A stretch of DNA of 12,123 nucleotides, from positions 1-12,123 of IMG/VR virus record IMGVR_UViG_2778261276_000001. One strand, written 5' to 3'. The notes under the pieces are model-generated. The model had not been told where the DNA came from. It searched no databases and was given only the letters and a program-made list of their open reading frames with translations. The position numbers were made by a program, and so were the translations under genes. The stretch comes from a virus. Lineage: Duplodnaviria > Heunggongvirae > Uroviricota > Caudoviricetes. Positions 1 to 12,123 of this stretch are shown in pieces (position 1 is the stretch's first letter; each line of letters begins with the position of its first letter).

Positions 1-401
1 GCACTACCTTGCAGCCTACTCCCGACACCAAAATTTCCCTTATGTAAAACGTCTGATAAACCAAGGTTTTCGAGAGCTGTTTTCACCGTGCCATCCGATT
101 TGATATCACCAAACGGATTCTTGCGGCTCAGGTATTCAACAGCAAACCCCGATCCCAGCAATTCAACAAAACCGGGCAGATCACCATTATCAAGCACATC
201 CCGTTGCGTTTTGTCACTTACAAACTGGGCCAGAGCTGCAGCAATAAAGCTGGCCTGCCGAATAACCTTATTGACTTGCGCACTGGATGCTTTCCCTGCT
301 GTAAATCCGGATAAAAGCGCAGGCAACGCTTCCCATTCCTCCTGCGACATAACATTGGCATTCCGATCAGTTGCAAACGCTTTAAAGTCATTTTTCGCCA
401 T
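1..401 (-). CDS. Tail fibre protein, N-terminal part (gene runs off the window start); start codon at 401..399
   Basis: Minus-strand ORF open to position 1; ATG overlaps the stop of the upstream gene (TGATG); translation [33 protein letters not shown]... resembles a phage side tail fibre N-terminus; position right after the gpI-like gene matches Mu/P2 baseplate-fibre order. Not listed in the ORF track because it is partial. Confidence 0.55.
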
Positions 402-1081
402 CAGAGTAATACTCCCCATGCCCCTACATCAAAACCACTGATGAATTCGTTATCCATATCAAAACCAAAAAATTTTGAACCTTCCGATGGAGTTTCCACC
501 GAAGGTGTTTCAATGCCACCCGCCCAAACCCCGGCGGCTTTTACTGTGAGATATCCCTGTTTAATTGCAGCAATTAACTCACGCGATACATCTGAAATAT
601 CAGTATCAGGAAAGAGCCAGACCGATATCGTCATGTCCTGGTTATCGACTATCTGCATTCGCAGTCCGGATCCTGCTGTCGCCGCGTCAAGAATTGCTGG
701 AAGCGAATCATTCCGTCCGTCCCAGTTATTAATCGCAATCTTCGCTTTAAGGATGACACGATAAGTTTCATCGCTGAGGTACATGTATCCGGAATCAGGA
801 TCGTATGGCCCCTGCCATACACCCTGATCATATCCAAGCCCGTCGGTATCCCAGCTGAAATAGACACCTGAGATAGGCTGGCTGACAACACGGCTACGTC
901 CGATCCACAATCCAAGAATGTCAAGTTGCACACCAACCGCAGAGTCAATATCAAATGCAGTAATCAGCCCTCTGGTGGCAGCCGCAACATCAATAAGCGG
1001 CCGGGTCATCAGATCAACATGTGCAAGAAATTTAGGTTTGGTGGCGTGGTAGTTCGTGATCAGTTCGGTGTATTTGCTCAT
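401..1081 (-). CDS. Baseplate/tail protein, P2 gpI / Mu gp48-like (YmfQ/DUF2313-like)
   Basis: 226-aa ORF, 4-nt overlap with the upstream gpJ-like gene and 1-nt overlap with the fibre gene; position between gpJ-like and fibre genes; resemblance to YmfQ-type proteins is from memory only. Confidence 0.55.
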
Positions 1082-2277
1082 GACTCCACCGTTATAACGA
1101 TATTTTCCGGTGTACAGGACGCAGATTCGTTGTATCTGATATCAATGTTTGATGACGACAAAGCCCCCGGGGATTTCCCAATCGTCAGTTCCTGAATATC
1201 GTAATAGCGTGCATTCCCGCCACTCACCACGCCAAGATTCGCCGGTGAGTAAATGCGACTTAAAAGGACCGAATCACCAATCATCAGACTATTGATATAG
1301 TCGGAAATAGCCTGCTGGATCTGCTGCCCTATCTGTGAGGTATAACCCGTAAAAACTTTTAATTTAATCCGGGCATAAACAGGTACATCACTGGAACGCG
1401 AGAATTTGATTACATGGGGATTGCCGTATTTATCCGGAACCGTAACGGATGTTGTACCGTGAGTGGCTGTCCCCTGGCCTTTATTCCCTCTGATAGCCTG
1501 AGCAATATCCGTCACATCACCGCCATCCACAATTACAGCAACAGAGTGTGGCGGTAACCCGTTACCGTCCTCCGAACCAGTATCGTTTTCATAGAGTTTG
1601 TGGCGGGTTACACCGGTAACATTAGAAACAGCACCATCCAGTGCTTCAAATGGGGTTATTGATGGCAACGCAACACTTTGCGACTGGCGGATACGTAACT
1701 CAGCATCAGTTTCTGCCGGAGAGCCAACAGTAGCCGCAGCAGGATTAGTTACCGAAACCCAGCCACGGGTTGGCGTATTAATTTCAGTGATAGTTCCAGC
1801 CAGCGCCGCCACTGCACCACTGACGGAACATGTTGCGGTCGCCATCACTGTACCATCCACGCCGACCACCACTGAAGCAGGCAAACGCCATATCACATTA
1901 TTACTGTCTTTCACGCTGCCATTAATGATGGTTGTTCCGGCAGTTCCTGTAAGAAGCAAATCAACCGTAGAGTTCGTCGCGCCTTTACGTGAAATACCAT
2001 TTATTTTCACGTTACTGGTCAGTGCAGCCCCATAGCCGGTTGCCGGTGAAAAACAGTTGTAGACAGTTATCGCCATATTATTGGCATCATGAATCGCCAG
2101 CGCCATCAGAGCCACCATCTGGCCGTCTTTGCTGTCCGGTTCGAGGTAGGCATCACTGCCATAAATCTGCTGAAAATAGCTAATCAGGGTGCTGAGTATC
2201 GTCTGATAATCAGGCGCACTGATCCCCTCCGCGGTTACCTTTGCAGATAAACCGAGAGAATCAAGGTTCAGAGCCAT
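1078..2277 (-). CDS. Baseplate J-like protein (P2 gpJ / Mu gp47 family)
   Basis: 399-aa ORF translationally coupled to its neighbours; size and position (after gpW-like, before gpI-like) fit the conserved V-W-J-I baseplate order. Confidence 0.6.
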   Translation of the reverse strand: MALNLDSLGLSAKVTAEGISAPDYQTILSTLISYFQQIYGSDAYLEPDSKDGQMVALMALAIHDANNMAITVYNCFSPATGYGAALTSNVKINGISRKGATNSTVDLLLTGTAGTTIINGSVKDSNNVIWRLPASVVVGVDGTVMATATCSVSGAVAALAGTITEINTPTRGWVSVTNPAAATVGSPAETDAELRIRQSQSVALPSITPFEALDGAVSNVTGVTRHKLYENDTGSEDGNGLPPHSVAVIVDGGDVTDIAQAIRGNKGQGTATHGTTSVTVPDKYGNPHVIKFSRSSDVPVYARIKLKVFTGYTSQIGQQIQQAISDYINSLMIGDSVLLSRIYSPANLGVVSGGNARYYDIQELTIGKSPGALSSSNIDIRYNESASCTPENIVITVES

Positions 2278-2630
2278 TACGCCTCCGATGTAACAGTCGT
2301 TATTCCATAGAGAGTGTCGATTTCAGCGGAAAACATGACACGTCGGGTCGTGGTATCCACCGTCGTATTGAAAGAGAGGATTGATTTAACGCCCTGCGTT
2401 TCGAGGATGCGCTTACGGATCGCCAGGTTGTAAGTTTCTGGTTTTTGCCTGCCCAGCACGGACTGGATCCACGGTGTTCCCTCTGTGGTATCAAGAAACC
2501 ATTGCCCATACCACAATTCGAATCGCGTTTTCACAGCCTGCGCTACGGCCTCAGGCGAGTTAATCAGCCAGGTGTCATCACCGCTGCCAAAGGTGTAATC
2601 GCCATCGGCGTCTTCACGTCTGTATCGCAT
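2277..2630 (-). CDS. Baseplate wedge protein, P2 gpW / Mu gp46-like (gp25-like)
   Basis: 117-aa ORF with 1-nt overlaps to both neighbours; size and synteny between spike and J. Confidence 0.5.
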   Translation of the reverse strand: MRYRREDADGDYTFGSGDDTWLINSPEAVAQAVKTRFELWYGQWFLDTTEGTPWIQSVLGRQKPETYNLAIRKRILETQGVKSILSFNTTVDTTTRRVMFSAEIDTLYGITTVTSEA

Positions 2631-3382
2631 CAGTTTACTCCGTCGGTATTGCTTCCACCGCGCTGAACACCACCATGAGTGTGCGTATCATCGATTGGCT
2701 TGCCGTTAGCCTTCACGCTACCCAAAAACTCAACAGCACCAGTGATTTTTGAAGCCACACCAGAAACAACAGACCCCACCATGCCTCCCATCCAGGTTAA
2801 CAGGCCATGAATGGTTACTTTCTCAGAAAAATCAGCCAGAGGGGCAACCACATCAAGGCCCCCCGGAGCGACAATTTTAATTTTCCTGGTATCAGGATTA
2901 AGCTCAAAATAGGTGCTGCCGTCATCACTACGCAACTGTGTGGCACTGGTATTAATACCGCTAATCTTCCTTGCCTGCGACTGGGGACCGACAATACAAA
3001 ACGCATCCGATAAATCATGCATTCTGTCATCGACCGGCTCCTGTATCCCGCCACTCTGCCACCAGAAATCAATACAACGATCGGCAAAAATCACCAAACA
3101 TTCATCACCGGCTTTAACTGGAAACGTTAGCGTACAGCCTCCGCCACGCGGGAATACCACTGGCACATCCACCAGCAATGGGTAATTTTTGGTAATGCGG
3201 TTGCCGTCGTTATCAATTTCAACGTAACGGATAGCAGGCTGTACAACCGCCGTCACCGCATCAGGAGCGAATGACTGAACAATGCCAGGCAAGGCGACAC
3301 GGATCTGGTTCTTTGTTGTTTCCCGTTCAGATTTAAATGTTTCGGCAAGGTCGCCGCTGCGGGTCTGGTCAGATACTGCCAT
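2630..3382 (-). CDS. Baseplate spike/assembly protein, P2 gpV / Mu gp45-like
   Basis: 250-aa ORF; C-terminal ...DDTHTHGGVQRGGSNTDGVN has an HxH motif typical of spike apex domains; synteny immediately upstream of the W-J-I genes. Confidence 0.6.
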   Translation of the reverse strand: MAVSDQTRSGDLAETFKSERETTKNQIRVALPGIVQSFAPDAVTAVVQPAIRYVEIDNDGNRITKNYPLLVDVPVVFPRGGGCTLTFPVKAGDECLVIFADRCIDFWWQSGGIQEPVDDRMHDLSDAFCIVGPQSQARKISGINTSATQLRSDDGSTYFELNPDTRKIKIVAPGGLDVVAPLADFSEKVTIHGLLTWMGGMVGSVVSGVASKITGAVEFLGSVKANGKPIDDTHTHGGVQRGGSNTDGVN

Positions 3383-3401
3383 TTAGTAGGCTCCAGAAAG
3401 C

Positions 3402-3424
3402 AAAAAACCCGCCAAGTGGCGGGT
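3402..3424 (-). terminator. Rho-independent terminator between the inserted cassette and the spike gene (hairpin can form on either strand)
   Basis: GC stem CCCGCCA-agt-GGCGGG at 3408..3423; on the minus strand it is followed by a T-run (plus-strand AAAAAA at 3402..3407); lies 22 nt after the stop of the 142-aa gene. Confidence 0.6.
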
Positions 3425-3446
3425 TTGAATTTTGAGAAATTTCAGC

Positions 3447-3875
3447 TTATGCAGTTAACGAGTCATCACCAATCTTCAGTAATTGATTAACGATTGCATC
3501 GACCTCTTCCGCATCCAGAATTACACTTCTCGCGGTAATCCGGTTGATTTTCCGCTCAAGCTTGTAATCAGAATTAACACGTTGGGCATGCGTCATTTTC
3601 AGTTTAACGCCGATTTTCTTTACTGCGTTAACATCAACATCGTTAAGTGCAGCTGCCTCACCACTACAAAAGGCCGTATAGACTCGCATGTGAACTCCAC
3701 CTTTTAGTTTTTCACCATCTTGTGTAGCGGTCGGTACCAGATTGTTGGTGATCCGTAAGGCGGAATGGTACATACCATAGTATGCTCGGCTAATAGCATT
3801 TCTCGTCCACATCTCACCGTTTAGAGCCAGGGAATGCTTAGCCAATTCAAGAAAACAGGTATGCTCAACCGACAT
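3447..3875 (-). CDS. Hypothetical 142-aa protein with an R-x6-H (HEPN-like) motif; second gene of an overlapping pair
   Basis: ORF with TAATG start/stop overlap to the upstream 243-aa gene; motif NAISRAYYGMYHSAL contains R-x6-H; about 43% GC in a sampled stretch versus about 55% in the flanking tail genes. Confidence 0.7.
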   Translation of the reverse strand: MSVEHTCFLELAKHSLALNGEMWTRNAISRAYYGMYHSALRITNNLVPTATQDGEKLKGGVHMRVYTAFCSGEAAALNDVDVNAVKKIGVKLKMTHAQRVNSDYKLERKINRITARSVILDAEEVDAIVNQLLKIGDDSLTA

Positions 3876-4606
3876 TAGAGTTCCCCGGCTTCAAAGCATC
3901 CGACGCATTCTGAATCCGCAAGCCCCGCAATAATAATCTCATCAGCCAAGGCATTATTCATCTGCGAAAGAAGCACTGGATCGTCTGTTTTGACTTCAAC
4001 GAACAGCGTATCAAGTTCTGACATTACATAAAAAGCATGAGCGCCAGCAAGACGAGCGCGGTACTTTTCTGCAACGTTCATCATGAGCCGCCCAATAGTT
4101 TTTAGCTCCTGAGCATGATCTTTTTGGGTATGCAGATAATTGAGCGTGTCATACCATTTGCCCATATCTTCAGGGCGCGGTACTTCCATTGCAGTTAGCA
4201 TCGGCATCACCTTTTCAAGCAAATCGATATCAACCCAGTATGCAGAAATTGTAGCAACCTCAGCCAATATCGTTGGATTAAGTGAATCAGATGCTTTCTG
4301 AATCATCACATACTGGCGAGCATGCAAACCTAAGTTACGCAGCGCAATCGTATAGTTACAAAAAGAAACTGGATCGTTAGGCGCTATTCTCAACCCCCGC
4401 TCACAGAGTGAACATCCTTCATCTATTTCACCAAGAACAAGCTTAGCTAAGCCTTCAATTGATAGCCCCTGATAACGTTCAGGTAGTTTCTTCGCTTCAC
4501 GAATGATTCGATGGATTTCAAACTCACTCAGAAGGTTTTCACCCTTAGTTAATGAAGGAGTCAGAAGATCTAACAGTTCTCCTGATTTTGGCTGCGCTAA
4601 ACTCAT
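3875..4606 (-). CDS. Hypothetical 243-aa protein, no recognisable motif; first gene of the overlapping pair
   Basis: Long ORF with a plausible RBS (AGGA about 10 nt upstream of ATG); preceded by a 149-bp intergenic region; translationally coupled to the 142-aa gene. Confidence 0.7.
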   Translation of the reverse strand: MSLAQPKSGELLDLLTPSLTKGENLLSEFEIHRIIREAKKLPERYQGLSIEGLAKLVLGEIDEGCSLCERGLRIAPNDPVSFCNYTIALRNLGLHARQYVMIQKASDSLNPTILAEVATISAYWVDIDLLEKVMPMLTAMEVPRPEDMGKWYDTLNYLHTQKDHAQELKTIGRLMMNVAEKYRARLAGAHAFYVMSELDTLFVEVKTDDPVLLSQMNNALADEIIIAGLADSECVGCFEAGEL

Positions 4607-4691
4607 GTTTTAGTTATTCCTGGCTTTAATGAAGTAGCATATCGATGGCAATCCACCATCAAAAAGTCAGTGCAGTGTAATCGCTCGTCTC

Positions 4692-4730
4692 AAAAAACAA
4701 CAGTTTTTAGAGCACATTTTGTTGTTTTTC
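4692..4730. promoter_or_regulatory. AT-rich inverted repeat (AAAAACAACA ... TGTTGTTTTT, 17-nt spacer) in the intergenic region upstream of the 243-aa gene
   Basis: Near-perfect 10-bp inverted repeat at 4693..4702 and 4720..4729; could be an operator or a weak terminator after the secreted-protein gene. Confidence 0.35.
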
Positions 4731-4755
4731 AGGCGTTACGAATTTCAGGTTACCT

Positions 4756-5097
4756 TCACCCAGCCACTTTTTTACAAGGGAAAGATCCGATGATTTTCGG
4801 CGCATCCATGCTGTTCTGCAGAAGCTGGACATTCAGGAATCGCGTTTCGGTACCAGGGCGACGAATGTATTCAAAGCCGTAGTTGTTACCGTCTTTGGCA
4901 GGCATAAGCCCCATGTCTACTTTCAAACCATTGGTACCCAGTTCGGTGATTTTTTGAGAGGTAACTCTTTCACCGTTGATAGTCGATAACTCGCCCTGGT
5001 TTGCAACCATAGTGTAGCCACCGCATTTAACCGTGAAGCCATCCGCCCACGCGCTGCACGCAGAAAAGACAGCTAACAGAAAAATAATACCCCTCAT
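4756..5097 (-). CDS. Secreted protein with N-terminal signal peptide (possible lipoprotein), 113 aa
   Basis: N-terminus MRGIIFLLAVFSACSAWA-DGF has a hydrophobic h-region and an AxA signal-peptidase I site; the Cys in FSAC could be a non-canonical lipobox; start 3 nt after the stop of the hub-like gene. Confidence 0.65.
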   Translation of the reverse strand: MRGIIFLLAVFSACSAWADGFTVKCGGYTMVANQGELSTINGERVTSQKITELGTNGLKVDMGLMPAKDGNNYGFEYIRRPGTETRFLNVQLLQNSMDAPKIIGSFPCKKVAG

Positions 5098-5100
5098 TGC

Positions 5101-6162
5101 TCATCCCCTTTGCAAAGCCGATCGCGTATACAGATCCGCCGCGCCACGCGCTTCGCACATCATATCCATGTACCACGCCTGGCCCCTTGTGTCGCCAGTG
5201 TACATAATCCCGCGCACAATATAAACGCCATCCGTTGCGATGCTGGCAGGCTGCGATGTGGTGCCGCTTAGCGTGATATTTCCATCCGTGTTCTGGTCGG
5301 TGATCTGACCACCAGCCATCGCAATATCGTTGTTCGACAAGGCGGTACGATACACGGAAGCCTGATCCAGTTGAATGAGCCCATTAACCCGGATGTTCGG
5401 ATTAATAAGCGCGCGGACGTTTACGCCGTTGCCGATGGTCTGCTGCGGCATGCCAATAAGCCCGGTAGCGCTGTTGAGCACAATCGCTTCGTGAACATAT
5501 TCATTATTCACCACCATCTGGCGCTGACCATCCACGAATTGCCATGTTGCGCCACATTGCCCGGCTACGTTATCCATTAGATGCCGCGTCATGCCAAAGA
5601 GCACCCGCCCCCGGGGGAATACAGTAGCAGGCATTTCAGGCGTCAGGCCTTCGGTCGCACCTTTGGCTTCGAAGTCTTTCATCAGCGCACGGTTCACATC
5701 AGCGACCGTGTAACCGGCAGCCAGCGTCTGTGAGGTTATACTGGTGGCAAAAGCCAGATCAGTATCTGCTGCCTGAATCAGGACGTAGGAATCAACCGGA
5801 CTGTCTTTTCCTGTGACCGAGTAGCGAATTTCACCGCTGAAAATCAGTCCGTAGTTGCGGCCATCTCTCTGGCCCACGTCCGCCGCGTCAACTTCCCGCA
5901 CGGTCCCTACGTCGCTTGCTGACACCTCCGGCGCGATACCGTCGTAACCGGCAATCAGACGCACTTTCGAAAATTCCTGCCCGGTGATTCGGTTCACAGT
6001 ATCTGCCGAGAGGTTATAAATTTTGATAGTCCCTACCCGGGACGCGCTGCTGATGTTGAACCAGTCGATCGTAAAGGTGACTTTGAAATCACTTAGCTCA
6101 ATTCCCTGACCGTTCCCGTCCACAAGCTGCAGCTCGAAATGTCTCATCCAGTTCTGTGACAT
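5101..6162 (-). CDS. Phage tail protein, probably baseplate hub (Mu gp44 / P2 gpD-like) by position
   Basis: 353-aa ORF with GGAG RBS; first gene of the tail operon in this window; function assigned only by synteny upstream of the spike gene. Confidence 0.45.
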   Translation of the reverse strand: MSQNWMRHFELQLVDGNGQGIELSDFKVTFTIDWFNISSASRVGTIKIYNLSADTVNRITGQEFSKVRLIAGYDGIAPEVSASDVGTVREVDAADVGQRDGRNYGLIFSGEIRYSVTGKDSPVDSYVLIQAADTDLAFATSITSQTLAAGYTVADVNRALMKDFEAKGATEGLTPEMPATVFPRGRVLFGMTRHLMDNVAGQCGATWQFVDGQRQMVVNNEYVHEAIVLNSATGLIGMPQQTIGNGVNVRALINPNIRVNGLIQLDQASVYRTALSNNDIAMAGGQITDQNTDGNITLSGTTSQPASIATDGVYIVRGIMYTGDTRGQAWYMDMMCEARGAADLYTRSALQRG

Positions 6163-6164
6163 GC

Positions 6165-6371
6165 TTACTCCGTTGATACCAGTAAATGACTGAGGCCGCC
6201 CAGATCAGTTTTCGTGGGATAATCCTGTGTGTTGTCATCGCAGACCACCACCAGCTTAAAACCAAGTCCCATAACTTCTTTCCACTGAGAGACTGCTGCA
6301 TCGCTAATGCCTAGTGCTTTAGCAACAGCACGCTGGGTTCCGAAGTGGTCAATAACATCTTTTTTGTACAT
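6165..6371 (-). pseudogene. cro: Truncated/chimeric cro: the first ~33 codons match P22/phage-21-type Cro, then fused in frame to unrelated sequence
   Basis: N-terminus MYKKDVIDHFGTQRAVAKALGISDAAVSQWKEV matches P22 Cro as I recall it (61 aa); the remaining 35 residues MGLGFKLVVVCDDNTQDYPTKTDLGGLSHLLVSTE are unrelated and the ORF stops 2 nt before the tail-gene ATG. Confidence 0.65.
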
Positions 6372-6385
6372 AGACTCGCTCCGAA

Positions 6386-6403
6386 ATTAAAGAACACTTA
6401 AAT
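6386..6403. promoter_or_regulatory. Operator OR1-like (ATTAAAGAACACTTAAAT), P22/21-type half-sites
   Basis: 18-bp near-palindrome with TTAAG/CTTAA-type half-sites overlapping the pR -10; the same architecture recurs at 6434..6451 and 7202..7219. Confidence 0.55.
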
Positions 6404-6429
6404 TATCCACCAAAGGAATCTTAAGTCAA
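6402..6429 (-). promoter_or_regulatory. pR-like promoter for cro (-35 TTGACT at 6429..6424, 16-bp spacer, -10 GATAAT at 6407..6402 on the minus strand)
   Basis: Near-consensus sigma-70 hexamers with correct spacing; overlapped by an operator. Confidence 0.6.
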
Positions 6430-6433
6430 GTTT

Positions 6434-6451
6434 ATTTAAGATGTCTTAACT
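6434..6451. promoter_or_regulatory. Operator OR3-like (ATTTAAGATGTCTTAACT) abutting the repressor start codon
   Basis: TTTAAG-N4-CTTAA palindrome ending 1 nt before the cI ATG; suggests a leaderless pRM transcript as in lambda. Confidence 0.55.
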
Positions 6452-7102
6452 ATGAATACACAACTGATGGGTGAGCGTATTCGCGCTCGCAGAAAAGAAC
6501 TCAAGATTAGGCAGGCTGCCCTTGGCAAGATGGTTGGCGTGTCTAATGTTGCTATTTCCCAATGGGAGCGATCTGAAACTGAGCCCAATGGCGAAAACCT
6601 ATTGGCCTTAGCCAAGGCTTTGCAGTGCTCCCCTGATTACCTGTTGAAAGGAGAGGATAGTCTTTCAAACATTGCCTATCACAGCAGGCATGATCCAAGA
6701 GGTTCGTATCCTCTAATTAGTTGGGTAAGCGCAGGATGTTGGATGGAAGCTGTAGAGCCATATCATAGGCGTGCAATAGATAACTGGTACGACACAACGG
6801 TAGATTGTTCTGAAGACTCTTTTTGGCTCGACGTTAAAGGCGATTCAATGACTGCCCCGGCAGGACTGAGTATTCCTGAGGGGATGATTATTCTCGTCGA
6901 CCCAGAAGTCGAACCACGTAATGGAAAGCTGGTAGTCGCCAAACTTGAAGGAGAAAACGAGGCGACATTCAAAAAGTTAGTTATTGATGCCGGTAGAAAA
7001 TTCCTGAAACCACTCAATCCACAATACCCAATGATTGAAATCAATGGGAACTGTAAAATCATTGGCGTTGTCGTTGATGCCAAGCTAGCAAACCTTCCTT
7101 AA
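6452..7102 (+). CDS. cI: Repressor, P22 C2 / phage 21 cI type (HTH plus S24 LexA-like autopeptidase domain)
   Basis: 216-aa protein MNTQLMGERIRARRKELKIRQAALGKMVGVSNVAISQWERSETEPNGENLLALAKALQCSPDYLL... is near-identical to P22 C2 repressor as I recall it; C-terminal GDSM (Ser nucleophile) and a conserved Lys; divergent from cro across the operator region. Confidence 0.93.
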   Translation: MNTQLMGERIRARRKELKIRQAALGKMVGVSNVAISQWERSETEPNGENLLALAKALQCSPDYLLKGEDSLSNIAYHSRHDPRGSYPLISWVSAGCWMEAVEPYHRRAIDNWYDTTVDCSEDSFWLDVKGDSMTAPAGLSIPEGMIILVDPEVEPRNGKLVVAKLEGENEATFKKLVIDAGRKFLKPLNPQYPMIEINGNCKIIGVVVDAKLANLP

Positions 7103-7124
7103 GGGGCTTTCGCCCCTTTTTTAT
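7102..7124 (+). terminator. Rho-independent terminator after the repressor gene
   Basis: AGGGGC-tttc-GCCCCT hairpin directly after the stop, followed by TTTTTTATTT. Confidence 0.8.
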
Positions 7125-7191
7125 TTCCCGTTAAAAATCAAAGACAAACTAAATTCACGCCCATAAAATTAAGTTTTCTTCAAAAATGCAC

Positions 7192-7220
7192 TTGACCAAT
7201 AAATTAAGAAGTCTTAAATT
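7192..7220 (+). promoter_or_regulatory. pL-like promoter (-35 TTGACC 7192..7197, 17-bp spacer, -10 TAAATT 7215..7220) with the OL1-like operator AATTAAGAAGTCTTAAAT (7202..7219) in the spacer
   Basis: Consensus-like -35, correct spacing, and an operator palindrome of the same family as the OR sites. Confidence 0.6.
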
Positions 7221-7266
7221 TAAGCCATCAGCAGGACGCTGGAAGCCAAACGGAACAGATTGGCAG

Positions 7267-7306
7267 GCTCTTTAACATCGACGGACTCTCAACCTAACCG
7301 TTGAGA
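7267..7306 (+). promoter_or_regulatory. nutL site: boxA (GCTCTTTAACAT, 7267..7278) and boxB hairpin (TCTCAAC-CTAACC-GTTGAGA, 7287..7306) of phage-21 type
   Basis: boxA matches the CGCTCTT(T)A consensus; the 7-bp stem and CUAACC hexaloop match the phi21 boxB as I recall it; located between pL and N. Confidence 0.75.
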
Positions 7307-7416
7307 CCAGAACTTGAGTGGTTTTGGGGATGGCGCGAATTGCAGCTGCAAGACAGCGATCGAGAAGATAAGCACCTCGACGCGTCATGCGCCAAAGCCA
7401 CTTAAAGGAGACCATC

Positions 7417-7722
7417 ATGGTAACCATTGTCTGGAAAGAATCCAAAGGTACGGCAAAAAGCCGCTACAAAGCTCGCAGAGCAGAACTTATTGCCGAGCGA
7501 CGCAGTAATGAAGCACTGGCGCGAAAAATTGCGCTAAAGCTCTCTGGTTGCGTCAGAGCAGACAAAGCAGCATCACTAGGAAGCCTTTGCTGCAAGAAGA
7601 AAGAAGAAGTCGTTCGAAAAAATAGAAGTATTTATTACAAAGATTCAAACCCGTTAGGAAACAAAATACATGCAGTCCAAAAAATAAAATTGTACAGTAA
7701 ACTACCGTACGGTGCTTATTGA
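7417..7722 (+). CDS. N: Antitermination protein N, phage-21 type
   Basis: AAGGAG RBS before the ATG at 7417; N-terminal arginine-rich motif GTAKSRYKARRAELIAERR matches the phi21 N ARM as I recall it; downstream of nutL. Confidence 0.8.
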   Translation: MVTIVWKESKGTAKSRYKARRAELIAERRSNEALARKIALKLSGCVRADKAASLGSLCCKKKEEVVRKNRSIYYKDSNPLGNKIHAVQKIKLYSKLPYGAY

Positions 7723-7730
7723 GTATGCTT

Positions 7731-8063
7731 ATGGTGAAAAAGACTATTTATGTTAATCCTGACCGCGGACAAAACAGAAAAGTATCTGATAGAGGTCTTA
7801 CATCTCGAGACAGGAGGAGAATAGCGAGATGGGAAAAAAGGATAGCATATGCATTAAAAAACGGTGTAACACCTGGATTTAATGCTATAGATGACGGTCC
7901 TGAATATAAGATTAATGAAGAACCAATGGACAAAGTTGACAAAGCATTAGCAACACCATTTCCTCGCGATGTCGAAAAAATTGAAGATGAAAAATATGAG
8001 GATGTAATGCACAGAGTTGTTAATCACGCTCACCAACGAAATCCAAATAAAAAATGGTCATAG
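7731..8063 (+). CDS. nun: Transcription termination/exclusion factor Nun (HK022-type); the exact start is uncertain (ATG 7725, ATG 7731 or GTG 7734)
   Basis: Contains the ARM SRDRRRIARWEKRIAYALKNGV and the C-terminus ...HAHQRNPNKKWS with the penultimate Trp characteristic of HK022 Nun; overlaps the N stop codon. Confidence 0.85.
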   Translation: MVKKTIYVNPDRGQNRKVSDRGLTSRDRRRIARWEKRIAYALKNGVTPGFNAIDDGPEYKINEEPMDKVDKALATPFPRDVEKIEDEKYEDVMHRVVNHAHQRNPNKKWS

Positions 8064-8085
8064 CCCACTTCGGTGGGTTTTTTAT
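8064..8085 (+). terminator. Rho-independent terminator after nun
   Basis: CCCAC-ttcg-GTGGG hairpin followed by TTTTTTATT immediately after the nun stop. Confidence 0.75.
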
Positions 8086-8202
8086 TGTCTGAACAAATCT
8101 AATTTACTACCGCAAGCCACGCAGTGAAATGAGGGTTACCTGCTCAGGCCGCCAGAAGCAACGCGGAAAATCAATTCCAGCTTATTACGATTGAGGTGAG
8201 CC

Positions 8203-8340
8203 ATGCTCAAGAAAGTCAAACGCCGACTTTACAAAGAAGGTAGATATTCATGCCAGTTGCCAAAATGCGACACAACAAAATGGAGTGTCGATGACTGGTG
8301 TAACTGGATAGATAGATACGGAACTTGGTGGGATAAATAA
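8203..8340 (+). CDS. Small hypothetical protein (45 aa, basic N-terminus, Cys/Trp-rich) at the position of lambda sieB
   Basis: ATG preceded by GAGGTGA RBS; MLKKVKRRLYKEGRYSCQLPKCDTTKWSVDDWCNWIDRYGTWWDK; below the ORF-track size cut-off; leader sequence repeated upstream of two other ORFs. Confidence 0.4.
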   Translation: MLKKVKRRLYKEGRYSCQLPKCDTTKWSVDDWCNWIDRYGTWWDK

Positions 8341-8394
8341 CAGGTAACTTAAGCGTATTTACTTTCGCAGCAAACCACTTATTTGAGGTGAGAT

Positions 8395-8481
8395 ATGGAA
8401 GAAGAATTTGAAGAGTTCGAAGAGCATCCTCAGGATGTGATGGAACAATACCAGGACTATCCGTATGACTACGACTATTGA
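8395..8481 (+). CDS. orf28: orf28-like small acidic protein (28 aa)
   Basis: GAGGTGA RBS; MEEEFEEFEEHPQDVMEQYQDYPYDYDY; length 28 aa and a 17-nt overlap with the ral start match the lambda orf28/ral arrangement as I recall it. Confidence 0.55.
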   Translation: MEEEFEEFEEHPQDVMEQYQDYPYDYDY

Positions 8482-8562
8482 TAAAAATCAATGGTGTGGA
8501 CAATACGAACGACGACAATGATTGCCAGAGAACTTGGTAAACAGAACTACAAGGCTGCCTGA
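8465..8562 (+). pseudogene. ral: ral (restriction alleviation) with an internal ~103-bp frameshifting deletion
   Basis: N-terminus MTTTIDKNQWCGQ matches lambda Ral and stops after 18 codons (8465..8521); the Ral C-terminus MIARELGKQN.KAA is encoded in another frame at 8518..8562; junction at a CAAT microhomology. Confidence 0.6.
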
Positions 8563-8620
8563 TGGTGGCCTTTATTTTTGTCCGTAAATAATTTCATGCT
8601 TATTACAATCAAGGTGATAT

Positions 8621-9070
8621 ATGGAAGAACAAGCAAACAAGATTCTCGTAGAACTACTGCAAAAAGCCAGCAATGGAATAGATGCTGCTGTTTCATTTAG
8701 CCAAGCACAGATTCCTGATGTTGTTCATCAGTTGCTGCTATGGAATATGGTTGACAGTCTGATTAAAACATTAATAGCCATTCTAACAATCCCACTGGTT
8801 TTCTGGTTTATGAAGAAGCAGTGCCAAAGAGTTGAGACAGGTAAAATCGGTGATGAAGGATACTCATGGGAGAGGGGAAATCCCAAATACAGGCCGACAA
8901 TGGTTTGGGATAGCAAAGGAGATATTAACCTTCTTATCATGCCATTGGTTGGAGTTTTGACTCTGTGGGGGATTTTTATTATTGGTGTAGTAACCAATAT
9001 GACTTGGTTAAAAATTTGGCTGGCCCCAAAACTTTACCTTATCGAATATGCAGCATCATTGGTTAAGTAA
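8621..9070 (+). CDS. Hypothetical inner-membrane protein (149 aa, two predicted TM helices) inserted between ral and ea10
   Basis: Hydrophobic segments LIKTLIAILTIPLVFWFM and INLLIMPLVGVLTLWGIFIIGVV; AAGGTGA RBS; about 700 bp separates ral' and ea10 here versus about 180 bp in lambda as I recall it. Confidence 0.75.
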   Translation: MEEQANKILVELLQKASNGIDAAVSFSQAQIPDVVHQLLLWNMVDSLIKTLIAILTIPLVFWFMKKQCQRVETGKIGDEGYSWERGNPKYRPTMVWDSKGDINLLIMPLVGVLTLWGIFIIGVVTNMTWLKIWLAPKLYLIEYAASLVK

Positions 9071-9219
9071 TTTCAGGCCGCATAATCGTCCTTTATTTTT
9101 GGCATAAACAACAGAATAAACACTGCACTGTGTATTCATTCCAACGAGTGAATACACGGAGCAATGTCGCTCGTAACTAAACAGGAGCCGACTTGTTCTG
9201 ATTATTGGAAATCTTCTTT

Positions 9220-9248
9220 GCCCTCCGATGTGAGGGCGATTTTTTTCT
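9220..9248 (+). terminator. Rho-independent terminator-like hairpin upstream of ea10 (tL2-like position)
   Basis: GCCCTC-cgatgt-GAGGGC followed by GATTTTTTTTC. Confidence 0.6.
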
Positions 9249-9264
9249 GTGAGGATATGAACAG

Positions 9265-9633
9265 ATGTCAAACATCAAAAAATACATCATTGATTACGAC
9301 TGGAAAGCATCAATAGAAATTGAAATCGACCATGACGTAATGACAGAGGAAAAACTTCACCAGATTAATAATTTCTGGTCAGACTCTGAATACCGACTAA
9401 ATAAACACGGCTCTTTATTAAATGCTGTATTAATCATGCTGGCGCAACATGCTCTGCTTATAGCAATTTCGAAAGACTTAAATGCATATGGTGTTGTTTG
9501 TGAGTTCGACTGGGATGATGGAAATGGTCAGGAAGGATGGCCTCCAATGGATGGTAGTGAAGGAATAAGAATTACCGATATCGATACATCAGGAATATTT
9601 GATTCAGATGATATGACTATCAAGGCCGCCTGA
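9265..9633 (+). CDS. ea10: Ea10-like protein (lambda Ea10)
   Basis: 122-aa ORF of the same length and position as lambda ea10, immediately upstream of cIII; sequence appears lambda-like from memory. Confidence 0.8.
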   Translation: MSNIKKYIIDYDWKASIEIEIDHDVMTEEKLHQINNFWSDSEYRLNKHGSLLNAVLIMLAQHALLIAISKDLNAYGVVCEFDWDDGNGQEGWPPMDGSEGIRITDIDTSGIFDSDDMTIKAA

Positions 9634-9706
9634 GTGCGGTTTTACCGCATACCAATAACGCTTCACTCGAGGCGTTTTTCGTTATGTATAAATAAGGAGC
9701 ACACCA

Positions 9707-9870
9707 TGCAATATGCCATTGCAGGGTGGCCTGTTGCTGGCTGCCCTTCCGAATCTTTACTTGAACGAATCACCCGTAAATTACGTGACGGATGGAAACG
9801 CCTTATCGACATACTTAATCAGCCAGGAGTCCCAAAGAATGGATCAAACACTTATGGCTATCCAGACTAA
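9707..9870 (+). CDS. cIII: CIII, inhibitor of FtsH (protects CII)
   Basis: AAGGAG RBS; 54-aa product [54 protein letters not shown] matches lambda CIII as I recall it; overlaps kil. Confidence 0.93.
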
Positions 9871-9982
9871 ATTCACTATCGCCACTTTTATTGGCGATGA
9901 AAAGATGTTTCGTGAAGCCGTCGACGCTTATAAAAAATGGATATTAATGCTGAAACTGAGAGCAAGCAAAAGCATTCACTAA
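9839..9982 (+). CDS. kil: Kil (host cell division inhibitor), 47 aa
   Basis: Internal ATG with AGGAG RBS inside the longer track ORF 9713..9982; [47 protein letters not shown]; 46-nt overlap with gam as in lambda. Confidence 0.8.
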
Positions 9983-10353
9983 CCCCCTTTCCTGTTTTCC
10001 TAATCAGCCTGGCATTTCGCGGGCGATATTTTCACAGCTATTTCAGGAGTTCAGCCATGAACGCTTATTACATTCAGGATCGTCTTGAGGCTCAGAGCTG
10101 GGCGCGTCACTACCAGCAGATCGCCCGTGAAGAGAAAGAGGCAGAACTGGCAGACGACATGGAAAAAGGCCTGCCCCAGCACCTGTTTGAATCGCTATGC
10201 ATCGATCATTTGCAACGCCACGGGGCCAGCAAAAAAGCCATTACCCGTGCGTTTGATGACGATGTTGAGTTTCAGGAGCGCATGGCAGAACACATCCGGT
10301 ACATGGTTGAAACCATTGCTCACCATCAGGTTGATATTGATTCAGAGGTATAA
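9937..10353 (+). CDS. gam: Gam (RecBCD inhibitor), 138-aa long form
   Basis: Near-identical to lambda Gam as I recall it ([22 protein letters not shown]... to ...[10 protein letters not shown]). Confidence 0.95.
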
Positions 10354-10358
10354 AACGG

Positions 10359-11144
10359 ATGAGTACAGCACTCGCAACGCTGGCTGGGAAGCTGGCTGAA
10401 CGTGTCGGCATGGATTCTGTCGACCCACAGGAACTGATCACCACTCTTCGCCAGACGGCATTTAAAGGTGATGCCAGCGATGCGCAGTTCATCGCATTGT
10501 TGATCGTCGCCAACCAGTACGGCCTTAATCCGTGGACGAAAGAAATTTACGCCTTCCCTGATAAGCAGAACGGCATCGTTCCGGTGGTGGGCGTTGATGG
10601 CTGGTCCCGCATCATCAATGAAAACCAGCAGTTTGATGGCATGGACTTTGAGCAGGACAATGAATCCTGCACATGCCGGATTTACCGCAAGGACCGTAAT
10701 CATCCGATCTGCGTTACCGAGTGGATGGATGAATGCCGCCGCGAACCATTCAAAACCCGCGAAGGCAGAGAAATCACGGGGCCGTGGCAGTCGCATCCCA
10801 AACGGATGTTACGTCATAAAGCCATGATTCAGTGTGCCCGTCTGGCCTTCGGATTTGCTGGTATCTATGACAAGGATGAAGCCGAGCGCATTGTCGAAAA
10901 TACCGCATACACTGCAGAACGTCAGCCGGAACGCGACATCACTCCGGTTAACGATGAAACCATGCAGGAGATTAACACTCTGCTGATTGCCCTGGATAAA
11001 ACATGGGATGACGACTTATTGCCGCTCTGTTCCCAGATATTTCGCCGCGACATTCGCGCATCGTCAGAACTGACACAGGCCGAAGCAGTGAAAGCTCTTG
11101 GATTCCTGAAACAGAAAGCCACTGAGCAGAAGGTGGCAGCATGA
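10359..11144 (+). CDS. bet: Bet (Red beta single-strand annealing protein)
   Basis: 261-aa product [72 protein letters not shown]... matches lambda Red beta; 4-nt overlap with exo. Confidence 0.97.
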
Positions 11145-11821
11145 CACCGGACATTATACTGCAGCGTACCGGGATCGACGTGAGAGCTGTCGAACAGGGG
11201 GATGATGCGTGGCACAAATTACGGCTCGGCGTCATCACCGCTTCAGAGGTTCACAATGTGATAGCAAAACCCCGCTCCGGAAAGAAATGGCCTGACATGA
11301 AAATGTCCTACTTCCACACCCTGCTTGCCGAGGTTTGCACCGGTGTGGCTCCGGAAGTTAACGCTAAGGCGCTGGCCTGGGGAAAACAGTACGAGAACGA
11401 CGCCAGAGCCCTGTTTGAGTTTACTTCCGGCGTGAATGTTACTGAATCCCCGATCATCTATCGCGACGAAAGTATGCGTACCGCCTGCTCTCCGGATGGT
11501 TTATGCAGTGACGGCAACGGCCTTGAGCTGAAATGCCCGTTTACCTCCCGGGATTTCATGAAGTTCCGGCTCGGTGGTTTCGAGGCCATAAAGTCGGCTT
11601 ACATGGCCCAGGTGCAGTACAGCATGTGGGTGACGCGAAAAGATGCCTGGTACTTTGCCAACTATGACCCGCGTATGAAGCGTGAAGGCCTGCATTATGT
11701 CGTGATTGAGCGGAATGAAAAGTACATGGCGAATTTTGACGAGATGGTGCCGGAGTTCATCGAAAAAATGGACGTGGCACTGGCTGAAATTGGTTTTGTA
11801 TTTGGGGAGCAATGGCGATGA
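11141..11821 (+). CDS. exo: Exo (lambda exonuclease, Red alpha)
   Basis: 226-aa product [44 protein letters not shown]... matches lambda Exo. Confidence 0.97.
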
Positions 11822-12000
11822 AGCATCCTCACGATAATATCCGGGTAGGCGCGATCACTTTCGTCTACTCCGTTACAAAGCGAGGCTGGGTATTTCCCGG
11901 CCTTCCTGTTATCCGAAATCCTCTGAAAGCACAGCGGCTGGCTGAGGAGATAAATAATAAACGAGGGGCTGTATGCACAAAGCATCTCCTGTTGAGTTAA
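11818..12000 (+). CDS. orf60a: orf60a-like protein
   Basis: 60-aa [32 protein letters not shown]... overlapping the exo stop (ATGA) and overlapped by the next gene by 28 nt, as in lambda. Confidence 0.8.
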
Positions 12001-12123
12001 GAACGAGCATTGAGATGGCACATAGCCTTGCTCAAATTGGAGTCAAGTTTGTGCCAATACCAGTAGAAACAGACGAAGAATTTCATACGTTAGCCGCATC
12101 CCTTTCACAAAAGCTGGAAATGA
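11973..12123 (+). CDS. orf63: orf63-like protein, N-terminal part (runs off the window end)
   Basis: [50 protein letters not shown]... matches lambda orf63 in sequence and position; truncated by the window end. Confidence 0.75.
   Translation, partial: MHKASPVELRTSIEMAHSLAQIGVKFVPIPVETDEEFHTLAASLSQKLEM

Follow-up and report, generated by a model that had tools for sequence, protein, structure and literature searches.

Genes and Control Elements of the Locus

The window, that is, the whole 12,123-bp stretch of DNA analyzed here, corresponds to contig NLFY01000068.1 of a draft E. coli assembly (GCA_002225755.1). It begins and ends inside a prophage, whose att sites and int and xis genes lie outside it. 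On the minus strand, an open reading frame (ORF) of 68 aa (6165..6371, from the ORF listing of the window) stands between the immunity region of a lambdoid phage and the baseplate genes of a contractile tail.

The repressor gene (6452..7102, plus strand) is intact and encodes a 216-aa protein of the imm21/P22 C2 type, identical to the proteins of phage 21 and of E. coli WAT. It contains an HTH_3 domain and a complete Peptidase_S24 domain (Pfam), the latter with the landmarks Ala-Gly at 94–95, GDSM at 130, and FKK at 173. In the phage 21 record (OL657228.1, 3260..3832) the repressor is annotated with 190 aa from an internal ATG; in RefSeq, as in the window ORF, it has 216 aa and begins right after the third mapped OR operator. 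The DNA being identical, this difference is a start-codon choice made in annotation. The 80-bp control region between the repressor gene and the 68-aa frame (6372..6451) is identical to that of phage 21, and three OR operators (6386–6403, 6408–6426, and 6434–6451) were mapped in it from the phage 21 annotations. A pR-like promoter on the minus strand (−35 at 6429–6424, −10 at 6407–6402), which is the best σ70-like site within positions 1–7400 with 10 of 12 matches, points toward cro. The upstream side of cro is thereby identical to phage 21, and downstream the nutR, tR1, and cII elements annotated in phage 21 are absent, the next gene being a baseplate gene.

Beyond the repressor, the pL-side early arm (7103..12123, plus strand) carries two N-region ORFs, a ral remnant, a 149-aa ORF, an ea10-like gene, cIII, kil, gam, bet, exo, and genes of the DUF1317 and DUF1382 families, the last of which is cut by the contig end.

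On the opposite side, a gene for a 353-aa baseplate protein (5101..6162, minus strand) has become the first gene after pR that is complete. RefSeq names its product a hypothetical protein, and its matches to PF22759 (E217_GP41; 22.4 bits against a cut-off of 27) and NF047561 (161 bits against 170) are below threshold; we tentatively assign it a hub role. The distal tail arm (1..5100, minus strand) consists of a 113-aa ORF, a cargo pair of 243 and 142 aa, the spike, sheath-initiator (gp25/W-like), Baseplate_J, and wedge (DUF2612) genes, and the 5′ end of a tail-fiber gene, which is cut by the other contig end. The first predicted intrinsic terminator downstream of pR (3405..3426, minus strand; a 9-bp stem and a T-run) is situated just after the cargo pair. 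The tail module had been called Mu-like in an earlier note on this DNA, a resemblance that was not shown; it is of the SEN34 type, with a simple baseplate like those of Pam3 and E217.

A Chimera of Cro and a Baseplate Plug

The 68-aa product of 6165..6371 (WP_089566742.1, labelled "Cro/CI family transcriptional regulator" in RefSeq) joins parts of two proteins in one reading frame, Cro residues 1–33 and, after them, residues 66–100 of a baseplate plug protein. Its first 33 residues, MYKKDVIDHFGTQRAVAKALGISDAAVSQWKEV, are identical to phage 21 Cro and, at 33 of 33 positions of the N-terminal part, to P22 Cro (PDB 1RZS), so that the assignment of about 33 residues to a P22/21-type Cro in the earlier note was correct. 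The corresponding DNA that is unambiguously of imm21 origin (6274..6371, minus strand; 100% identical to phage 21) runs from codon 1 through the second base of codon 33 and includes the predicted helix-turn-helix. Residues 3–33 match positions 2–32 of the P22_Cro profile (PF14549) with 51.6 bits, the cut-off being 30.2, which identifies the N-terminal helix-turn-helix. The match covers 31 of the 60 profile positions and falls short of the complete five-helix domain of ~60 residues, while intact phage 21 Cro spans positions 2–59 of the same profile. The chimera has kept the helix-turn-helix sequence and lost the Cro C-terminus, just as had been proposed.

What follows residue 33 had been regarded as unrelated sequence and proved to be a native gene end. 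Residues 34–68 are identical, in the same frame, to residues 66–100 of the 100-aa plug of intact relatives, where a gene for a 100-aa "phage baseplate plug family protein" lies directly upstream of the 353-aa gene. The retained 3′ end of the plug gene (Pam3_gp18 family; 6165..6270, minus strand; codons 66–100 and the native stop) is identical to the plug of E. coli MS 119-7 (WP_000155118.1). The intact MS 119-7 plug matches positions 1–100 of the 101 in PF22479 (Pam3 gp18 plug; E = 7.5e-24); no match of the chimera to PF22479 was found at E ≤ 0.01, and the full-length plug domain of ~100 residues is lacking from it. The stop codon of the chimera is the plug gene's own. Between it and the ATG of the 353-aa gene lie 2 nt, a gap that had been noticed earlier and that turns out to be the native spacing of the two genes, the same in intact relatives.

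With its C-terminus explained as a fragment of the plug gene, the chimera was rejected as a natural variant of Cro. In comparison with the Cro proteins of phage 21 and P22, residues 1–33, the promoter, the operators, and the ribosome-binding site are identical, whereas 35 baseplate residues stand in place of Cro residues 34–61, the part that supplies the C-terminal helices in the all-helical repressor fold. The P22-type Cro fold is a repressor fold of five to six helices (PMC6649833). By this comparison the fused product would keep about the first three helices and lack helices 4–5 of the five-helix form, and it is probably non-functional, unstable, or inactive. A single-sequence AlphaFold model of the chimera has low confidence (mean pLDDT 56), and the folding of helices 1–3 is undecidable from it. 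The annotation of WP_089566742.1 needs fixing: the entry is a Cro–baseplate chimera, to be flagged as a fusion or a pseudogene.

Base-Level Structure of the Junction

Alignment to the imm21 and tail parents places the junction at 6271–6273, within the interval 6265..6275 that had been predicted for it. These three nucleotides (ATA on the plus strand, TAT on the coding strand) are common to both parents, and there are no inserted bases. On the coding strand, phage 21 reads …GAAGT·TAT·CCCAGAG, the tail parent …CGCCTG·TAT·GGGACTT, and the window …GAAGT·TAT·GGGACTT, that is, the sequence switches cleanly from one parent to the other at TAT. The parental sequences agree at these three consecutive bases only and diverge at once on either side.

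The same picture emerged from a megablast search that covered 5,426 complete genomes of E. coli together with 50,697 phage records. All repressor-side matches begin at 6271, and those to phage 21, λ imm21, DE3, mEp235, and HK629 are 100% identical; in particular, phage 21, DE3, mEp235, and further phages of the imm21 type share bases 6271..6800 with 100% identity. All tail-side matches end at 6273, with identity of up to 99.5% in E. coli MS 119-7. As the matches to the two parents extend over hundreds to thousands of bases with 98–100% identity and E = 0, they are not due to chance.

The junction is known from one strain. Megablast found no record that spans it among the complete E. coli genomes and phage records just named, and the exact 26-nt junction pattern was not found in the GTDB species-representative genomes or the JGI metagenome contigs. 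At the protein level, the chimera forms a singleton cluster among ~15 billion proteins (exact and 90%-cluster look-up). Such rarity would also be expected if the join had arisen in assembly or library construction and were absent from the cells: it comes from one draft assembly only, a second copy is missing from the genomes, phages, plasmid-free E. coli set, GTDB representatives, and metagenome contigs searched, and its protein is a singleton. We nevertheless consider an artifact very unlikely. The chimeric protein is called both in the NCBI assembly and, identically, in the independent Logan assembly. From the way de Bruijn assemblers work, a false k-mer overlap join should be impossible with 3 shared nucleotides, and ~6 kb of contig on each side with no branching at the junction would argue against an intact cro–cII region or a full plug gene at comparable depth. 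A clean, in-frame join at a microhomology also looks biological.

Intact Relatives and the Missing Block

A prophage with both arms of the window and everything between them is found in E. coli WAT, where it occupies ~42 kb between torS and torT. Its left part has the order int–xis–…–exo–bet–gam–kil–cIII–…–repressor, followed by cro–cII–O–P–ren–nin–Q. After Q come tRNA-Asn, tRNA-Thr, holin, lysozyme, Rz, terminase, portal, head, neck, DUF3383, DUF3277, chaperone, and tape-measure genes, and the tape measure is followed by a baseplate protein, the plug, the 353-aa gene, and, farther on, the spike, J, wedge, and fiber genes. The window is collinear with this prophage in three blocks, 58–6273 (98.9% identity), 6271–8520 (99.4%), and 9090–12123 (97.8%). 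The sole large difference is the absence from the window of 21,806 bp (1,121,163–1,142,968 of the WAT record), for which the WAT annotation gives 33 complete CDS and two tRNA genes, together with the 3′ part of cro and the first 65 codons of the plug gene, the contents including cII, O, P, nin, Q, the lysis, terminase, head, sheath, and tube genes, and the tape measure.

The same design is present in the complete genome of isolate 23S01245-7, beside tRNA-Thr/proA. The repressor and Cro of this intact prophage have the same RefSeq accessions as those of WAT, and it also contains the 149-aa ORF and the ral remnant of the window, which makes it the closest relative of the early arm. In both strains the two arms lie in the same order and orientation within one undeleted prophage, a λ-type early region with the imm21 repressor and cro preceding a contractile-tail late module of the SEN34 type. 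At 98–99% identity and with different integration sites, the WAT and 23S01245-7 prophages are relatives of the element and not its actual parent. A prophage of WAT-like design, with another immunity region and several inserted IS elements, occurs in MS 119-7. This sister prophage (NZ_CP146653.1, ~1,586,000–1,636,000) decays in another way, through insertions of IS3, IS100, and ISEc62; its tail-fiber gene is truncated, and a fragment of an S24 peptidase gene adjoins intS at argW.

The design itself belongs to a kind of phage that is already known. Both arms have matches in Salmonella phage SEN34, at ~80% identity over 49% of the window; electron microscopy and sequencing have shown that this phage unites λ-like genes for regulation and replication with a contractile tail, and it is inducible by mitomycin C (PMC5261728). 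Like the SEN34-type lambdoid myoviruses (the "temperate 26" cluster; PMC5261728), the element of the window unites λ-like early genes with a contractile-tail baseplate module of the same transcriptional direction; it differs from them in missing the central 21.8 kb and is a remnant rather than a functional member of the group. The full set of replication, lysis, packaging, head, sheath, and tube genes is not present in the window.

The gene content also bears on the reading of the window as a natural, viable mosaic phage with a functional Cro variant and its own gene order. Lambdoid phages are indeed highly mosaic, and the structural module occurs with different early regions. However, the interval between the cro fragment and the hub-like gene holds no origin, O/P, Q, lysis, terminase, capsid, sheath, tube, or tape-measure gene; the plug is cut to its last 35 codons, the C-terminus of the chimera being fully explained as a gene fragment; and this Cro C-terminus occurs in no other sequence of the protein cluster look-up. 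An intact phage whose Cro ends in this way, the finding that would have spoken for a natural variant, was likewise absent from the 50,697 phage records and the ~15 billion proteins. The viable-phage reading is effectively refuted by gene content and retains next to no probability. A tailocin (an R-type or other contractile injection system) was rejected as well, since the DUF3383 and DUF3277 genes at the sheath and tube positions, the tape-measure-like lytic transglycosylase gene, and the lysis genes are all in the deleted block, and the distal baseplate genes are the only tailocin-relevant genes left in the window.

Origin of the Remnant

The arms are collinear with an intact relative, one contiguous block is missing, and the junction is novel and free of foreign DNA. 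We suggest that, very probably, one illegitimate deletion of ~21.8 kb in a SEN34-type "lambdoid myovirus" with a phage 21 immunity cassette left a defective prophage. One internal deletion is the most economical explanation. The earlier note had arrived at a single large deletion from the middle of cro to just upstream of the hub gene. The single event stands, with one 21,806-bp block missing relative to WAT, and its distal end has to be moved into the plug gene, 105 nt before the stop. The defectiveness claimed there is borne out, the replication, lysis, head, sheath, tube, and tape-measure genes being missing from the window, and so is the absence, within these 12,123 bp, of cII, replication, Q, lysis, terminase, and head genes between the cro fragment and the hub-like gene.

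In the proposed scheme, the parent would have combined an early region of the λ type and the immunity cassette of phage 21 with a late module for a contractile tail. Illegitimate joining, either homology-independent or mediated by microhomology, would have linked cro codon 33/34 to plug codon 65/66 at the shared TAT. Lost in this way would have been the 3′ part of cro, nutR/tR1, cII, O and the origin within it, P, ren, the nin genes, Q, and two tRNA genes. The loss would have extended through the lysis, terminase, portal, head, neck, sheath, tube, and tape-measure genes to one baseplate gene and the 5′ part of the plug gene. The retained ORFs all have the same length as in intact relatives, and thus the deletion is probably recent.

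The two arms could, alternatively, derive from separate prophages of one chromosome, an imm21 lambdoid phage and a SEN34-type myovirus, joined by recombination between them. Cassettes of the imm21 type are present in many unrelated lambdoid prophages, the tail module is also paired with non-λ early regions (for instance, in vB_EcoM-606R2), tandem prophages exist (for instance, PSS-04), and the contig stops short of the att sites. Against this, two complete genomes hold both arms in one prophage with exactly the required order, orientation, and spacing, and the closest relative of the early arm, the 23S01245-7 prophage with its 149-aa ORF and ral remnant, itself carries a SEN34-type late module. 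A direct-orientation join of distant prophages would, moreover, be expected to delete the intervening chromosome, which is usually lethal. We regard a two-prophage origin as improbable and retain the deletion within a single prophage.

As to the mechanism of this deletion, IS elements are not foreign to the family, with IS3, IS21, and IS1 insertions observed in relatives of the window's prophage. In the three-way base alignment, however, no IS remnant, repeat, or extended similarity was found at the breakpoints, where the parents match at 3 bases only, and for this reason a homologous, site-specific, or IS-mediated route is highly unlikely. The shared TAT suggests the use of microhomology and falls short of proving it, as shared sequence of at least 3 nt is expected at ~5% of random junctions. 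For E. coli, PMC4872102 (citing Chayot et al. 2010) documents an end-joining activity whose deletions arise at microhomologies and reach up to 40 kb, and the structure of the junction fits illegitimate joining of this type. Replication slippage and topoisomerase-mediated joining are indistinguishable from end-joining by sequence alone.

The element is a fresh instance of ordinary prophage decay, a well-known process. Its E. coli counterparts are the deletion-decayed lambdoid prophages Rac, DLP12, Qin, and e14, which, as is generally known, have likewise suffered large internal deletions, retain repressor or immunity, recombination, and scattered late genes, and make no particles. The element described here differs from them in resulting from one clean and apparently recent event, with arms 98–99% identical to intact relatives, in having an in-frame gene fusion as its scar, and in descending from a myovirus-tailed lambdoid phage rather than a siphovirus. 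Resolved to the base, it illustrates how an inducible prophage is reduced by one illegitimate deletion to a remnant that carries functions for immunity and Red recombination.

Expected Behavior of the Remnant

The prophage had been thought to be locked in repression. This part of the earlier proposal is not supported: as the repressor is identical to that of phage 21 and has a complete S24 self-cleavage domain, derepression should remain possible. The element would still confer imm21 immunity, and its pL operon (N, kil, gam, bet, and exo) would remain under a repressor that responds to SOS. It should be unable to replicate, lyse the host, or build particles, so that the functions that follow derepression, and not derepression itself, would have been lost.

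After derepression, transcription starting at pR would be expected to cross the chimera, then the hub-like gene, the 113-aa ORF, and both cargo genes, and to stop at the terminator (3426→3405). The pR transcripts would be unmodified, with no nutR-dependent antitermination, since nutR and tR1 fall in the deleted block. Without Cro, expression of N, kil, gam, bet, and exo from pL would not be turned down after induction.

A similar arrangement has been built in the laboratory. The recombineering prophage λ cI857 Δ(cro–bioA) of strains DY330 and DY380, reportedly introduced by Yu et al. in PNAS in 2000, is said to keep the repressor, pL, N, kil, gam, bet, and exo and to lack cro and everything rightward of it, and thus resembles the present element in outline. 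Its Red genes are said to be under repressor control without Cro feedback, as would be expected here. Unlike that construct, the element of the window is natural and has a wild-type imm21 region, its deletion ends in its own baseplate module and not in bio, and cro codons 1–33 and pR are kept.

The remnant might even serve as a domesticated unit, in which the imm21 repressor provides SOS-inducible Red, Gam, and Kil from pL and cargo from pR, the latter comprising the 113-aa secreted protein and the HEPN-like pair of 243 and 142 aa, expressed up to the terminator (3426→3405) free of Cro feedback and antitermination, with some residual operator binding by the chimera. We judge this quite improbable. 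If it were true, the host would keep immunity, recombination, and a possible defense cassette, with all lethal late functions lost. Prophage finders would score the region as phage-like, although no phage is possible from it. The finding opens no new biological question, and its main practical consequence is the corrected annotation of the chimera.

Further Genes of the Retained Arms

Several genes outside the junction deserve mention. The 113-aa ORF (4756..5097, minus strand), directly after the 353-aa gene, has a signal-peptide-like N-terminus (MRGIIFLLAVFSACSAWA…) and is conserved in WAT and MS 119-7 (WP_001214055.1). The overlapping genes of 243 and 142 aa (3405..4606, minus strand), which have a strong terminator of their own (3426→3405), are situated between the hub-associated and spike genes. 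Searches of the 113-aa, 243-aa, 142-aa, and 149-aa ORFs against Pfam, NCBIfam, and PADLOC gave nothing solid, the lone match being a marginal one of the 142-aa protein to PADLOC HEPN_IX (E = 0.009). In PSS-04, the same slot (26598..27588 of the fetched locus) is occupied by a YafO-family toxin gene and a partner, and in vB_EcoM-606R2 (9566..10829 of the fetched locus) by other hypothetical genes. Judging by these contents, it looks like a variable cargo or defense slot inside the baseplate operon.

In the early arm, a 569-bp mosaic block (8521..9089) that is absent from WAT and phage 21 replaces most of ral. It contains an ORF for a hydrophobic 149-aa protein (8621..9070, plus strand), which in the 23S01245-7 prophage is WP_000392424.1 and stands beside a frameshifted ral gene. 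This protein is possibly a membrane exclusion-type moron. Finally, the extreme ends of the window, 1..57 and 11976..12123, fall inside the tail-fiber 5′ region and the DUF1382 gene. Ends inside phage genes are typical of assembly breaks at prophage repeats, and thus the strain probably carries further related prophages.
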